Shown: positions 53,747 through 59,241 of the stretch, piece by piece | Position numbering within the stretch: position 1 is the first letter of the stretch | Layout: every line of letters begins with the position of its first letter | Assembly (NCBI GenBank): GCA_963668625.2 | Contig: CAXXKA010000008.1 | Coordinates: forward strand, 864,001 to 928,000 | Direction of reading: 5' to 3' | DNA: 64,000 nucleotides | From: an uncultured candidate division Zixibacteria bacterium | Lineage (GTDB): Bacteria; Zixibacteria; MSB-5A5; UBA10806; 4484-95 | Program-made: the position numbers and the translations under genes | Notes under the pieces: generated by a model | The model's input: only the letters and a program-made list of their open reading frames with translations | What the model was told of the DNA's origin: nothing | Database searches by the model: none

Positions 53747-55144
53747 ATGGCTGATAAATATCAACTGGTGGTGATCGGAGCCGGCCCTGGCGGTTATGTC
53801 TCCGCTATCAGGGCGGCACAGCTTGGCCTGAAAACGGCGATTGTCGAGAAAGAATATCTCGGCGGTGTATGTCTCAACTGGGGATGTATTCCCTCTAAAG
53901 CTCTTTTATATGTCACCGAGCTAAAACGCACAATCGAACACGCCGAACGTCTGGGCATAAAGGCCGAGGGCGTAGAGATCGAGATCGATAAACTTAAAAA
54001 GCACAAAGATGACACGGTCAAACGCTTGACCGGCGGCGTTAAGGTACTTTTACAAAAAGCCGGCGTGGATATCATAAACGGCGAGGCCTCATTCGTCTCA
54101 AAAAACGAGATACAAGTTAATGACGGAGGTCAGAAAACCCCGGTGCAGTCGGAGAATTTCATTATCGCCACCGGCGCATCCCCGATGCAGATTCCGACTA
54201 TCAAAACCGATGGCGAGCTTATCTTAGGCGCGCGGGAGGCTATCGATATACCGTTCGTGCCTAAAAAGATGGGCGTTGTCGGGGCCGGCCCAATCGGCAC
54301 CGAGATGGCAACCGTGTACAGCAGCCTCGGCGCCGAGGTGACCATAATCGAGCTTATGGATGCCGTGTTACCGATGCTGGATAAAGACCTGTCTTCGGCC
54401 TCCGAACGAGCGCTTAAAAAACAGAAGATGGAGATACTGACCTCCTCGAAAGTTACCGGCTCGAAACGTACCCCCAAGAAAGTCGAGGTAACCGTAGAGA
54501 CACCTAAAGGCGAGCAACAGTACAAGTTCGATATGGTACTGGTCGCCGCCGGCATGGTGCCCAACACCGGTACGCTGGGACTGGATAAAGCCGGTATTAA
54601 AACCGATAAGCGAGGTTTCATCGAGGTGAACAACAAGATGCAGACCAGCCTACCGAATATCTATGCTATAGGTGATGTGGTCGGTGGTATACTACTGGCG
54701 CACAAAGCCTCGCACGAGGGTATCATCGCAGCCGAGAACGTTTCCGGTGCGGCTCATATCACCGATTGGAAATCGGTACCGTACGCGGTGTTTACCGATC
54801 CGGAGATCGCCGGTGTGGGTATGACCGAGAAAGAAGCTGTCGAAAAAGGCCACAAGGTGAAAGTCGGCAAATTCCCCTACCGTGCTATCGGCAAGGCAAT
54901 CGCCACGCTGGCCTCGGATGGTTTCACTAAAGTCATCGCCGATGCCGACACTGATGCCATACTGGGTATTCACATGTTCGGCCCGCATTCGGGAGATATC
55001 GTTTTCGCCGGTACGACACTGCTCGAGTTCGACGGAACAACCGAGGATTTAGGTCATCTGATGGCCATACATCCGACACTATCGGAGGCCATGATGGAGG
55101 CCGGTTTGGCCGCCAACAAGAAAGCGATACATATAGTTAATTAG
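53747..55144 (+). CDS. lpdA: Dihydrolipoamide dehydrogenase E3
   Basis: GAGPGGY, GGVCLNWGCIPSK, HPTLSE. Confidence 0.98.
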   Translation: MADKYQLVVIGAGPGGYVSAIRAAQLGLKTAIVEKEYLGGVCLNWGCIPSKALLYVTELKRTIEHAERLGIKAEGVEIEIDKLKKHKDDTVKRLTGGVKVLLQKAGVDIINGEASFVSKNEIQVNDGGQKTPVQSENFIIATGASPMQIPTIKTDGELILGAREAIDIPFVPKKMGVVGAGPIGTEMATVYSSLGAEVTIIELMDAVLPMLDKDLSSASERALKKQKMEILTSSKVTGSKRTPKKVEVTVETPKGEQQYKFDMVLVAAGMVPNTGTLGLDKAGIKTDKRGFIEVNNKMQTSLPNIYAIGDVVGGILLAHKASHEGIIAAENVSGAAHITDWKSVPYAVFTDPEIAGVGMTEKEAVEKGHKVKVGKFPYRAIGKAIATLASDGFTKVIADADTDAILGIHMFGPHSGDIVFAGTTLLEFDGTTEDLGHLMAIHPTLSEAMMEAGLAANKKAIHIVN

Positions 55145-55170
55145 AATCATTATTTGGCTTATAAATATTC

Positions 55171-55238
55171 GTAGAGGCGTTCGATCGAGCGCCTCTTTTC
55201 AGAATTTTTAATAAGCTGGCGGGAATTCTTTCCCGCCA
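55171..55238 (+). terminator. Two hairpins after lpdA (terminator and/or REP-like)
   Basis: GTAGAGGCGTTCGATCGAGCGCCTCTTTT and TGGCGGGAATTCTTTCCCGCCA. Confidence 0.7.
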
Positions 55239-55391
55239 AGTTTAATCCGGTAGTATTTCATCAGGAAAGTATAAACGGAAAACACCGCATATCATACGAT
55301 ACGGATAGTGGCCCTCATCAATAAACCCAACACTTTACAACTTGAAAACAAGATTTGCCGGATATGTCTGCACGATATTGATGATTAATCG

Positions 55392-56384
55392 TTATTTGAA
55401 AAAGTAACAGATACCGGCTTTGATATCGAAAATATATGAATATTGATGGCTACGCTCGCCATACGAATTATAGCCATAACCAACACTTACTATATCCAAA
55501 CTGACTCCCCCCTCGATACCCAGGTATTCCGATACCTTTTTCACGACTCCGAAACTTCCGGTAAGAAGAAACTTTGATTGCTTATCCGTGACTTTTTCGC
55601 TCCAGGTCTCATTGGTGCTAGTATTCTCAAAAAAAACCTCGAGTGAGGTAAGATGCTGTATAGCTCCAAATCCACCATAAAGGTACCACATGCTAAAGTC
55701 TTTGATGTTTTTATCGGTATGGCTGTAATACTCAACCGCGCATATATAACGAATCCCATGAAATTTAAGTTTGTGATCGGTAATTTCGTTATCGGGGAAG
55801 TTGGAATAAAGCTGAAGGTTGTCGTCGATACTCATTCCGGAGCGCGAGACGATAAACCGTAATGCCAAATGATGGTCGACTGCTAATCGGAAGTCACCCT
55901 CGAATCCTATTCCTGAGTTTATCCCCTCGTAGTAGTCACCTATCGGTATGCTATGAATCCCGGAAAACCTTATTGCGAAATTCCATATTTTCCATGGAGA
56001 TACCAGGTAACGATGAGGAATATCAGAATCGGGCACCGGAGTATTACTGCTGGTTAAATCAAAAAAAGGAATATCTTCCTCGCTTTTATCATCAATCTCC
56101 CCTGATCCGGATGAAACATCCCTTTTTTTCAAAACCTTATCAGTAATATCTTTATTATCGAGATCCAACACTTTCTCGATATGATCAAATCCTAGCTCAA
56201 TGATCCTGTCCTCGAGAGATATACGAATATTTTTATAGTAATTATTTGTATCATATTTAACATTTTCGAATTGCTCGCCATTCTTTAATATTATAGTACC
56301 CTGACTGGCCGCCAACGGGCTTAGTGATACAATAAATATAGCTAAGGTTAATACCAATTTTCCTATAGATTTAGAAATAGTCAT
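55392..56384 (-). CDS. Exported protein with probable outer-membrane beta-barrel C-domain
   Basis: Signal peptide; alternating beta strands; ends AGICYFFK. Confidence 0.6.
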   Translation of the reverse strand: MTISKSIGKLVLTLAIFIVSLSPLAASQGTIILKNGEQFENVKYDTNNYYKNIRISLEDRIIELGFDHIEKVLDLDNKDITDKVLKKRDVSSGSGEIDDKSEEDIPFFDLTSSNTPVPDSDIPHRYLVSPWKIWNFAIRFSGIHSIPIGDYYEGINSGIGFEGDFRLAVDHHLALRFIVSRSGMSIDDNLQLYSNFPDNEITDHKLKFHGIRYICAVEYYSHTDKNIKDFSMWYLYGGFGAIQHLTSLEVFFENTSTNETWSEKVTDKQSKFLLTGSFGVVKKVSEYLGIEGGVSLDIVSVGYGYNSYGERSHQYSYIFDIKAGICYFFK

Positions 56385-56422
56385 TAAAAACTCCTATGAT
56401 AAAAGTCTACTCCAAATTTCAG

Positions 56423-57436
56423 TTATCTGTTTGCTAACACAAAGTTAGGGAAATCTTCAAACACCCAATTATTTTTCAAGGTGTCATAGATTATTCCCAG
56501 TAATTTTCTGGCTGTGGCAATGATAGCCTTACCGCTGCCACGACGGTTTTTTATACGATTGTAATATTTACTCAAGTAATGGTTATATCGTATGGCAACA
56601 AGCGTACACTGCACCAGTGTAGTCCGACCAATCTTAGAACCACGCTTGGTAATCCGACCATGATGCTGAATCTCGTTTGAATTGGAAACTCGCGGCACTA
56701 CGCCAAAATATGAGGCCAATTTATCTTTGTCCGAAAAATCAGCAACATCACCAATTACCGAAAGCAACACTGTAGCTGATTTGCTGCCGATTCCTTTGAT
56801 GCTGGTCAGGTTCTTATGCCCGTTCAACTTGCGACCCTGATCCTCTATCTGTTTGTCCAGCTTTTTTATCCCCTCATTCAAACTGCGAATCTGATCAACC
56901 AATACCTCAAGCTCAACAGAAACAACCTCATCAAAATTCATCTTTAGAACCCGCTCCAAACTCTTGTTGCTGGAGTAGGCCTCCTTTTTACTCTTGATAC
57001 CATGATGATTGAGTATGTTGTGTATTTTATTCTTCAAAGCTGTACGTAACTTGACCAGCTTGTCCCGTGTCCCAACAAGTGAACTGATCTGCGCTTTATC
57101 TTTCGTCTTTAATCGGGCTTTCGGCAACATGTCTTTGCTCATAAAATAGGCTAAGTTCCTGGCATCGTTTTCATCCGTCTTACTGACTGATGATTTGATT
57201 ATCTCAAATTTGTTCGGATCGACGACAACAACTCGCTTGACCAAATGCGATATCTCATCAACGAAATAACGAGTGTTGCCAGTGGCCTCAACCGCTACAC
57301 AATCCGTCTTTTTTAATCCTCGTTTAAATTCCTTTAGATCCTTTAGCCGATACTCCTTGATCCTCTCCCGACCACCGGCTGTCAGGTAACACACGGTCAA
57401 ACTGTTTGTGTGAAGGTCTACTCCTAAGTACCTCAT
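56423..57436 (-). CDS. IS110 DEDD recombinase/transposase
   Basis: GVDLH, AVEATG, KTDENDA; IKGIG, YFGVVPRVSNS, AIIATARKL. Confidence 0.97.
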   Translation of the reverse strand: MRYLGVDLHTNSLTVCYLTAGGRERIKEYRLKDLKEFKRGLKKTDCVAVEATGNTRYFVDEISHLVKRVVVVDPNKFEIIKSSVSKTDENDARNLAYFMSKDMLPKARLKTKDKAQISSLVGTRDKLVKLRTALKNKIHNILNHHGIKSKKEAYSSNKSLERVLKMNFDEVVSVELEVLVDQIRSLNEGIKKLDKQIEDQGRKLNGHKNLTSIKGIGSKSATVLLSVIGDVADFSDKDKLASYFGVVPRVSNSNEIQHHGRITKRGSKIGRTTLVQCTLVAIRYNHYLSKYYNRIKNRRGSGKAIIATARKLLGIIYDTLKNNWVFEDFPNFVLANR

Positions 57437-57449
57437 CTTCTTGCTCCAT

Positions 57450-57658
57450 TCTATGGTTATCACTGGAGCAGACTCTCTGTCGGCGCCTACCAAACTCCTA
57501 TTCAAGGTCTTTGCCTTATGGTGGCAATTCGGTTACAGGTCTGATTAATCTCCTTTACGAGGTCTGGCCTCAAGCATTCAGTTCAGCCTATAACCTATCC
57601 GCTCCAGTTAGAAATTCATTACCGAAGCTCTAACACCAACAGAATAGATTAGCAAGAT
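57450..57658 (-). ncRNA. Putative bridge RNA in the IS110 left end
   Basis: Nested stems 57598-607/57463-72 and 57583-95/57531-44; two AGGAG-centred segments matching the junctions; ends approximate. Confidence 0.7.
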
Positions 57659-57688
57659 GCTTTTATCGTACCATCTCCTTTTTTTTAC

Positions 57689-57717
57689 ATAATATATTGC
57701 TATAAATGTTAAGGCAA
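57689..57717 (-). promoter_or_regulatory. Host sigma70-type promoter now reading into the IS110
   Basis: Minus strand TTGCCT-N17-TATTAT just upstream of the AAGGAG insertion site. Confidence 0.65.
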
Positions 57718-58063
57718 GGTGTTTTGCCGGTATTACACCGATACTGAAACCGGAGCTGAAACAAATATAATTCGATTACATTATCCTAATATAATGGAAA
57801 TAGTTAGCATATAGTATCAGATTAATATGCTAATGCGTTGATATAGTTTACTTAAGCAGGTGCTGAGAGAATATTAGATTGGGTGCAATGAGGTGTAACC
57901 GATAGTAAAGCTTATCGTATAGAGCAAGAAAACTTTACTCTTTTTTCTTTTTTAAGTGAAAAGTACTAATTTTTCGCCGATTAATTAAATGATCAATAAA
58001 TTTTAGAAACAAAATACCGTTAGCAATCGTTATGGCAAATTAACTTGTTAAGGAGGTTTGAAT

Positions 58064-58321
58064 ATGCCGAGCAAAACTGCTACAACCAAGAAGGCAGCTA
58101 CTAGAAAAAAAGCTACCTCTACTCGGAAAAAAACAACAACCTCAGCTAAAAAGAATACCAAAGACCAGAGGATGGTTTTAGGTAATCCCGGCGAATTAAA
58201 TACCAAAATCCGCCAGAAGGCTTACGAGATGTACCAGCAGCGCGGTGGATGGCATGGCGCTGATATGGAAGATTGGTTGAAAGCCGAGCGAGAGGTTAAA
58301 AGAACGCTGACTACAGCATAA
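58064..58321 (+). CDS. DUF2934 protein with Lys/Thr/Ala-rich basic N-tail
   Basis: IRQKAYEMYQQRG..HGADMEDWLKAERE; AAGGAGGT RBS. Confidence 0.88.
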   Translation: MPSKTATTKKAATRKKATSTRKKTTTSAKKNTKDQRMVLGNPGELNTKIRQKAYEMYQQRGGWHGADMEDWLKAEREVKRTLTTA

Positions 58322-58341
58322 AGTTGACAGGGTCGGGATAC

Positions 58342-59241
58342 TTACCGGCCCTTTTTTATTGTCAGTGAAACGAGCGCGTTTACAGCCTCGATCAAGGTTG
58401 ATATGATTCTCTGCACCAGAGCTATGACCAGTGCGATCTCGGCGGACATATAAGCCGAAAGCAGGGCTACCAACAAGGCTTCGCGCACACCGATACCACC
58501 GGGAATGAATACCGCCAGGTAGCCAATAGTCCAGGCCAGGGGCAGAAACGATATAACTGCGGCCGCATTCACCGCGTTAATCGGATGAACCGCCTGTATA
58601 AGCATATAAAGGCTCAATCCGTAAATCCCCCAGAATACCAGGTATATCACGAAATAGATAATAATCGAACTATAGCTGATATTTAACTCGATCGTATCTT
58701 TTTTTAATAACCTTGAGCCGTAATCAAGCACTTTCCGGAGTATTGACGGGTGTATGGCAATAAAAGCAAGAATCATTACCGATACCACCGGGATATGGAA
58801 TTCGGTATATTTTCGGCTGATCAGGAAATAAGCCAGCCCCCAGAACAAACCCGAGCCCTTGAAACAGACCTCATTTATTATCACAGCAGTCATCGAAAGG
58901 CGCTTGCCGATACCGTACTCGCCGGTATAATATACCATCCCCAGCACGCTCCATACCTTGCCGGGCAGGTATCTTCCGATAAACGATAGGTTGAATATCC
59001 TGAAAATTTCAGGCAGGTTGAATCGATATCCGGCAATTTTCGTAAAAAGCAGGCGAAATACTACAACCGGGCCGAACAACGCCAGCCAGGTAAGGATAAT
59101 AGAAATAATGAGATACCATATATTAATATGCCAGTCGAATCCGTTTAGTTTTGACCAGTTGACTGTCAAGTAGTAGGCCATGAAACCGAAAGCTAGGAGT
59201 ATATAGACATATTTCAGGATTGCCGAAAATTTCTTATTCAT
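58342..59241 (-). CDS. Lysylphosphatidylglycerol-synthase TM / flippase-like protein
   Basis: GRYLPGKVW, PGGIGVRE, ALVQR. Confidence 0.85.
   Translation of the reverse strand: MNKKFSAILKYVYILLAFGFMAYYLTVNWSKLNGFDWHINIWYLIISIILTWLALFGPVVVFRLLFTKIAGYRFNLPEIFRIFNLSFIGRYLPGKVWSVLGMVYYTGEYGIGKRLSMTAVIINEVCFKGSGLFWGLAYFLISRKYTEFHIPVVSVMILAFIAIHPSILRKVLDYGSRLLKKDTIELNISYSSIIIYFVIYLVFWGIYGLSLYMLIQAVHPINAVNAAAVISFLPLAWTIGYLAVFIPGGIGVREALLVALLSAYMSAEIALVIALVQRIISTLIEAVNALVSLTIKKGR

Follow-up and report, generated by a model that had tools for sequence, protein, structure and literature searches.

The DNA analysed here is a stretch of 64,000 nucleotides (nt), referred to as the window, from an uncultured bacterium of the candidate division Zixibacteria (GenBank assembly GCA_963668625.2, contig CAXXKA010000008.1, positions 864,001 to 928,000). 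Its minus strand carries an element of about 1.29 kb which, judged by its sequence, is an IS110-family insertion sequence (IS). The element is inserted in the ribosome-binding site of a gene for a protein of 330 amino acids (aa) (56384-55392, minus strand), termed the host gene, whose product has no Pfam match and a signal-peptide-like N-terminus. On the evidence set out below, it is very likely that the element is active and that it chooses its sites through a guide of the bridge-RNA type located in its 238-nt left end.

Element architecture and junctions

Counting the GGAG shared with the target only once, the element comprises 1284 bp (56391..57674, minus strand, from ATGGTACGAT to TTATCATAGGAG); with the AAGGAG included, it extends over 56391-57680. 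The left junction, read on the minus strand, is GTAAAAAAAAGGAG followed by ATGGTACGAT, with the host Shine-Dalgarno (SD) sequence AAGGAG at 57680-57675. The right junction is TTTTATCATAGGAG, with AGGAG at 56395-56391, followed by the host spacer TTTTTA (56390-56385, minus strand) and the ATG of the host gene (56384-56382). These junctions are exactly those described in a previous sequence-only reading of the window, according to which an IS110 element had inserted at an SD and was bordered by an SD on both sides. The tetramer GGAG, common to the host target and the right end of the element, occupies 57678-57675 (minus strand) at the left junction, whereas the terminal AGGAG of the right end is now placed as the SD of the host gene.

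The transposase, or recombinase, gene encodes 337 aa (57436-56423, minus strand) and has its own GGAG upstream (57447-57444). It is preceded by the left non-coding end of 238 nt (57437..57674, minus strand), predicted to encode a bridge-RNA-like structured RNA, and followed by a right end of 32 nt (56391..56422, minus strand), which is the entire distance from the transposase stop codon to the end of the element. The longest open reading frame (ORF) on the plus strand of the element amounts to 75 aa. The protein matches Pfam families PF01548 (5.7e-13) and PF02371 (5.4e-22), and scores 242.7 bits against the NCBIfam model NF033542, 'IS110 family RNA-guided transposase' (cut-off 140). Its relationship to the recombinases of IS621 and ISCro4 is distant (E ~1e-12, ~50 bits); GVDLH, VEATG and KTDENDAR align with the D, E, D and D positions of these two chains. 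Ser241 of IS621 (in RRYESGSS, position by hand count) faces an Asn in PRVSNSNE, where serines flank the aligned position.

As is typical of IS110 elements, long terminal inverted repeats and a true target duplication are absent, and the same GGAG flanks all copies. The sole inverted repeat is subterminal and 11 nt long: its left arm TACGATAAAAG (57660..57670, minus strand) pairs at 10 of 11 positions with 56395-56405, the site of the right arm CTTTTATCATA (56405-56395, minus strand). The ends of the element read ATGGTACG and CATAGGAG.

Eleven copies in the source genome

The genome of origin (4.30 Mb in 10 contigs) harbours 11 copies of the element, 8 of which are identical across 1290 bp while 3 carry one base difference each. 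At all 11 sites the host hexamer AAGGAG is located on the left and TAGGAG, a spacer and an ATG on the right, and the transposase runs in the direction of the host gene. The expectation of the sequence-only reading that further copies would lie at AGGAG-spacer-ATG sites is thus borne out in every case. Between TAGGAG and ATG, five copies have a spacer of 5 nt, five others one of 6 nt and a single copy one of 7 nt. After removal of the copies, an ATG is found at 5-7 nt for 175 of the 870 AAGGAG[AT] sites of the genome; on a uniform choice among such sites, 11 out of 11 would occur by chance with a probability of ~2e-8. ORFs of at least 116 aa are located downstream of nine copies, and Pfam domains, including Peptidase_M32 (from residue 12), Peptidase_M14, SnoaL and Glyoxalase, begin near residue 1 in 7 of the 10 downstream ORFs tested.

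Six copies (L001, L004, L006, L007, L010 and L011) precede proteins whose N-termini, judged by eye, resemble signal peptides or those of lipoproteins. At L002 and L008 (contigs C10 and C6) the ATG opens just 34 and 39 codons without a Pfam match, and the left flank of L002 holds the inverted repeats CCTCAGGATG and CATCCTGAGG.

Uninterrupted sites in related genomes

The gene for the M32 peptidase downstream of copy L003 has orthologues in five related genomes (64-76% identity). In a protein-anchored comparison, all five orthologues are preceded by an uninterrupted purine-rich SD-like motif, a spacer and an ATG; the motif is AAGGAG in three genomes, and GGGAG and TAGGAG in the other two. One such site reads AAAAAGGAGAAAAATATG, compared with AAAAAAGGAG, element and TAAAATAATG here. 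The empty sites anticipated by the sequence-only reading therefore have the boundaries that it implied, as orthologous sites in other species rather than alleles of the same population. When 30 relatives were searched with the DNA of the locus, one genome yielded short fragments of a related element and nothing else was found; at the DNA level the relatives are too divergent.

These sites bear on whether the element might persist mainly by supplying a promoter or an SD to the downstream gene, and hence be a mobile expression module that benefits the host rather than a near-neutral parasite. Such a role would fit the SD that the element end carries at native spacing, only 32 nt past the transposase stop without an intervening terminator. 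However, the empty orthologous sites already own an SD and an upstream region, so there would be no gain; moreover, near the right end the minus strand revealed no promoter facing outward, and the downstream genes are functionally unrelated. We therefore consider a beneficial cassette very unlikely.

Relatives across phyla

A transposase scan of species-representative genomes was evaluated for the best 80 of 164 relatives, with 48-65% protein identity. According to their record titles, the hosts belong to Omnitrophota, Acidobacteriota, Spirochaetota, Alpha- and Gammaproteobacteria, Planctomycetota, Ratteibacteria and others. The right flank was usable in 71 of the 80 loci. Among the 9 left out, 4 lie at a contig end past a recognisable right end, and in 5 no right end was found by pattern (2 contig-end stops, 2 variant ends and 1 with none). 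A start codon (ATG, GTG or TTG) follows the CAT[A/G]GGAG end after 3-12 nt in 67 of the 71 loci, a count that includes one Robiginitomaculum genome scored after TAGGAG instead. The close homologues thereby conform to the insertion pattern that the sequence-only reading had predicted for them. An ORF of at least 60 codons, or one running off the locus, is present in 56 of the 71, and only L045, L055, L059 and L067 lack a start codon after the right end. In all loci, transposase and host gene point in the same direction. Where the left side was evaluated, host sequence ending in GGAG (mostly AAGGAG) is followed by A[T/C]G..A[T/C]G.

The right end varies within this set. On one Robiginitomaculum chromosome (L069, L071-L073, L075 and L087-L089) the terminal TAGGAG begins with the stop codon TAG of the transposase, and the right non-coding end shrinks to nothing; L071 and L087 are located upstream of near-identical small ORFs starting MAKK/QHTKEFQQEAV. 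Conversely, L013, L020, L032-L037, L039-L041, L047, L050 and L091 have ~75-340 nt from the transposase stop to CATAGGAG, several of them with G+C-rich palindromes, and a short right end is thus not a clade-wide rule. In L045, the host spacer and ATG are preceded by two tandem copies of the element's final 16 bases (ACAAACATCATAGGAG); this may be what is left of an earlier copy, or the result of insertion beside a solo end.

A structured RNA with target and donor guides

The left end is predicted to fold with a minimum free energy of -80.5 kcal/mol (z-score -5.15). Its structure was scored on an alignment of 32 homologous left ends with 41 pairs. The model consists of a 5′ hairpin, a long closing stem (GGAGUAGA/UCUACUCC), an arm with a first internal loop and its own hairpin, and a second hairpin; a four-pair interaction between the element end and a GCCA guide is also counted among the stems. 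Paired cells make up 94.3%, compared with 84.4% in shuffles and 31-45% with slid partners, and 23 of the 41 pairs display compensatory changes. An RNAalifold consensus, in which the guide GGAG was paired with a downstream CUCC and the GGAGUAGA/UCUACUCC stem was omitted, was replaced by this stem, as the latter is supported by compensatory changes.

The putative target guide, AAAGGAG followed by AU (57548..57556, minus strand; AAAGGAG at 57556-57550), is located within GUAAAGGAGAU, the 3′ side of the first loop. It has the same sense as the left flank plus GGAG and continues into the first two bases of the element. Across the relatives, guide and target agree in 61 of 61 loci at position -1, in 59 at -2 and in 51 at -3 (A-A 36, T-T 7, G-G 4 and C-C 4), whereas at -4 the agreement (15 of 61) is at chance level. 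Permutation of the 33 unique guide-target pairs gave 78.3 +/- 3.2 matches against 96 of 132 observed, a value reached in 0 of 10000 trials. The match also holds where the target has changed: in four loci of two Acidobacteriaceae genomes, guide and target alike read CACGGAG. These loci (L055, L059, L067 and L070, on contigs of metagenome-assembled genomes) are situated in short tandem repeats, TTCACCACGGAG|[A/G]CACGGAG, with no start codon nearby, and judged from these sequences the lineage is a natural case of retargeting away from ribosome-binding sites. The two handshake-like bases next to the core behave in the same manner, GGAGAC guides going with left ends that start with AC (4 of 4) and GGAGAU guides with AT in all other rows.

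Two further segments correspond to the ends of the element. The sequence GCCA (57522..57525, minus strand), just 5′ of the second hairpin, is antisense to bases 2-5 of the left end (TGGT) and probably serves as its guide. Alignment column 4 covaries with column 182 (AU 12, GC 12, GU 6, CG 1 and UA 1, with 0 of 32 unpaired), so that the left end of the element varies together with GCCA or GUCA. On the 3′ side of the second loop, the putative donor guide AUAGGAG (57495..57501, minus strand) has the same sense as the right end CATAGGAG. The latter is accompanied by AUAGGAG in 37 loci and the alternative right end CATGGGAG by AUGGGAG in 13, so that the donor guide tracks the right end in 50 of 51 loci, L049 being the exception. 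Two other candidates were discarded: the hairpin-loop sequence ACCAU as left-end guide, since covariation favours the GCCA register one step upstream, and UGGUA after AUAGGAG as a copy of the left end, since in relatives it corresponds to the stem that closes the loop.

The element thus displays two features of bridge RNA and seekRNA systems, namely a two-loop structured RNA next to the recombinase gene and loops that covary with target and donor; the covariation extends to the left-target, left-donor and right-donor guides. The same data speak against an untargeted origin of the pattern, in which AGGAG would be an ordinary 5-bp target-site duplication and, after near-random insertion, only copies in ribosome-binding sites would survive. 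A 5-nt direct repeat does flank the element, and selection against genic insertions must exist. Yet the enzyme is a DEDD/IS110-type recombinase and not a DDE transposase, the flanking pentamer is identical in 11 of 11 copies and across phyla, and changes in the target and in the element ends are matched by changes in the internal guides. In addition, in lineages with the right end CATGGGAG the flanking repeat is only GGAG, which fits a shared core but not a duplication. We regard an untargeted origin as next to impossible.

The DNA of the target guide itself (57548-57557, TAAAGGAG then AT) is a perfect match to the target motif. If no more than about 7 nt are read, insertion of the element into its own copies should be possible; interrupted copies number 0 of 11.

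Confinement to ribosome-binding sites

Genes were called crudely from ORFs; on this basis the genome has 477 AAAGGAG sites, of which 124 are RBS-like (resembling a ribosome-binding site), 265 genic and 88 other, and 870 AAGGAG[AT] sites, which divide into 190, 488 and 192, respectively. Selection against genic insertions alone gives a chance of ~50-65% per site, which is insufficient for 11 of 11 copies and marginal for 9 of 11.

Restriction to ribosome-binding sites might instead be mechanistic rather than selected, if the spacer and start-codon side were recognized directly in addition to the SD, either by the protein or by the 5′ side of the first loop (ACUGAAUGCUU, 57572..57582, minus strand), a possible guide for this side. 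In favour of this, an ATG is located at 5-7 nt at 11 of 11 sites of the element, while by the crude call RBS-like sites account for no more than about half of the non-genic AAGGAG[AT] sites, and the corresponding 5′ position of the second loop does carry an antisense guide. Across 58 sites of 32 guide families, complementarity between the 5′ side of the loop and the right flank averages 4.08 nt; permutation gives 3.52 +/- 0.14 nt and never attains the observed value in 2000 trials, although this result may be inflated by host base composition. Single cases extend to 7 nt, as for AAATCAT in L024 and the CTAACCGATGCT site of the GATCGGTTTAGT family. On the other hand, for the element in the window no more than 2-4 nt are complementary to its 11 right flanks, and a position-by-position matrix reveals just a faint anti-diagonal (z ~2-2.6 among 120 cells). 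Moreover, a fixed register would not tolerate spacers varying from 3 to 12 nt, and the CACGGAG lineage inserts where no start codon is near. Reading of the site in two parts therefore appears rather unlikely to us.

Several observations also weigh against site choice by a bridge-RNA-type guide, the reading that we prefer. Seven nucleotides do not explain the exclusivity of the insertions, as about half of the non-genic sites are not RBS-like, and the ORFs downstream of 2 of the 11 copies have only 34 and 39 aa. The counts from relatives overstate independence, since many loci are copies within one genome, and the covariation of the donor guide stems from just one or two lineages. The left side was evaluated without 13 of the 80 loci (7 with too little upstream sequence and 6 without a recognisable left end), and L044 was dropped from the left-side count as a false pattern match. 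An Rfam scan of 55000-59000 at E <= 1 returned no family. Lastly, the order of the guides is reversed relative to IS621, and consequently the IS621 mechanism is not simply transferable.

Proposed mechanism

By analogy with bridge RNAs, we propose that the first loop holds the target and the second the joined ends of the element. AAAGGAG, which has the same sense as the top strand of the target, would pair with the bottom strand, and strands would be exchanged within the GGAG common to target and element; judged from the guide-target matches, the guide would specify about 7 nt, three bases plus GGAG. As target and element share GGAG at the exchange point, both junctions keep it. The left junction retains the host AAGGAG, and on the right TAGGAG falls at exactly the original distance from the host ATG. 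In the sequence-only reading, the element was taken to rebuild the SD at identical spacing. The spacing is indeed kept, but the rebuilding is no separate adaptation, since it follows from exchange within the shared GGAG. Strand specificity of the guide would likewise account for the transposase always having the same direction as the host gene.

The RNA would be made and bound by the recombinase. Transcription from the host would read into the guide RNA, the transposase and then the host gene, and the latter would still be translated from the regenerated SD. The minus strand has no terminator-like hairpin in the interval from the transposase stop to the host ATG, and co-transcription of element and host gene is therefore plausible. 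The sequence-only reading had suggested capture of a host promoter, with the host gene translated as the last cistron, an arrangement that we infer as well. Its candidate promoter, TTGCCT-N17-TATTAT (57689..57717, minus strand), is present and matches the consensus at 9 of 12 positions; however, a promoter scan gave 8 promoter-like hits in the region versus 7.9 in shuffles. We therefore treat it as a consensus match and nothing more, which is weak evidence for a promoter. The 7-nt guide would account for the restriction to true ribosome-binding sites in combination with the loss of insertions that disrupt genes, perhaps aided by transcribed copies proliferating better.

A second candidate promoter would be formed in the circular form of the element. 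TACGAT inside the left subterminal repeat may act as the -10 element of a circle-junction promoter, and TAGACT in the right end (56409-56404, minus strand) is a candidate -35; joining of the ends would set the two 17 nt apart. In some relatives, the corresponding sequences are TTGACA or TTGACT (-35) and TATGAT (-10).

Comparison with known systems

Targeting of SD and start codon by the IS110 family is already published. According to the passages available from PMC2942039 (Plague 2010, citing Doran 1997 and Inglis 2003), IS900 and IS901 of Mycobacterium avium, both of this family, insert between the SD and the start codon. PMC8141618 gives CATGNNNNNNTCTCCTT as the target motif of IS900, and in the part available describes both elements as being without typical inverted repeats and target duplication. 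The reverse complement of the IS900 motif, AAGGAGA-N6-CATG, contains the same SD hexamer as the sites here. An ORF aligned with host signals (hed) is located in IS900 on the strand complementary to the transposase, and as far as can be read from these passages the IS900 transposase is antisense to the host gene. In contrast, the transposase here is sense to the host gene, the element contains no long antisense ORF, and its end regenerates an SD for the host gene. The likeness thus concerns the insertion site, AAGGAG..ATG, and derives from published descriptions, not from transposase sequence; the present element is a sense-oriented and widespread variant of the published antisense insertions.

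With IS621 and ISCro4 the element shares a two-domain recombinase with aligned DEDD residues, a long non-coding left end, a short right end and short subterminal repeats, as well as an RNA with two internal loops, one for the target and one for the donor, each including the shared core. In the available text of PMC11208160 and PMC11208158, the same-sense guides of IS621 (LTG and LDG) are located 5′ of the antisense guides. Here this order is reversed, antisense segments being 5′ and same-sense segments 3′ in the loops. Furthermore, the shared sequence is GGAG (AGGAG in this genome) instead of the 2-nt CT core of IS621, and the demonstrable target guide covers about 7 nt. The targets of IS621 are REP elements.

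For the seekRNA elements ISEc21 (IS110 type) and ISEc11/ISPa11 (IS1111 type), the accessible parts of PMC11187229 (Siddiquee et al.) describe a promoter at the circle junction and natural reprogramming among relatives. In the IS1111 type, the complement of the top strand comes first and the non-coding region is located downstream; in ISEc21 the order is the reverse and the region is upstream. Our element apparently combines the two, with a non-coding region upstream as in the IS110 type, yet a guide order as described for the IS1111 type.

No paper linking a bridge-RNA guide to the SD was found in the literature searched, which did not extend to the supplementary target tables of the bridge-RNA papers. 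The main text of Durrant 2024 contains none of the terms 'Shine', 'RBS', 'IS900' or 'start codon', although its supplementary natural-target tables, outside the search, could list the motif; in a preprint on noncoding RNAs that discusses IS110 bridge RNAs, the SD is mentioned in connection with a riboswitch.

On the mechanism proposed above, the element shows how a member of the IS110 family can pick ribosome-binding sites: the guide holds the SD, and as the element end provides a second copy, the host gene keeps its signal. More tentatively, and as a possibility on which we would not yet rely, the relatives may constitute a multi-phylum bridge-RNA clade in which the guide, of about 7 nt, is fixed on the SD, the layout is mirrored with respect to IS621 and the site is maybe read in two parts. 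Its members would always be joined in sense to a host operon, with host promoters driving guide RNA and recombinase. If this is true, the SD, as the one short regulatory sequence common to most bacteria, would explain the breadth of hosts; a guide fixed on it may be the reason why the clade occurs in Omnitrophota, Acidobacteriota, Spirochaetota, Proteobacteria and others. For the design rules of bridge recombinases, the element offers a natural system with reversed order, a short guide and retargeting from AAAGGAG to CACGGAG. For annotation, elements within 5′ untranslated regions make the downstream gene resemble the last gene of a transposase operon.

Occurrence in metagenome assemblies

In the assembly of the source sample, the repeat is collapsed to one record of 1290 bp that corresponds exactly to 56391-57680. 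The contigs of four runs include none that joins the flanks without the element and no circle junction; as these are contigs and not reads, absence is not implied. Pieces of the element with at least 99% identity (window 56391-57681) occur with different flanks in contigs of the wetland and rhizosphere metagenome runs X4, X5 and X6. On the element strand, the right flank in X5 again consists of AGGAG, a few bases and an ATG.

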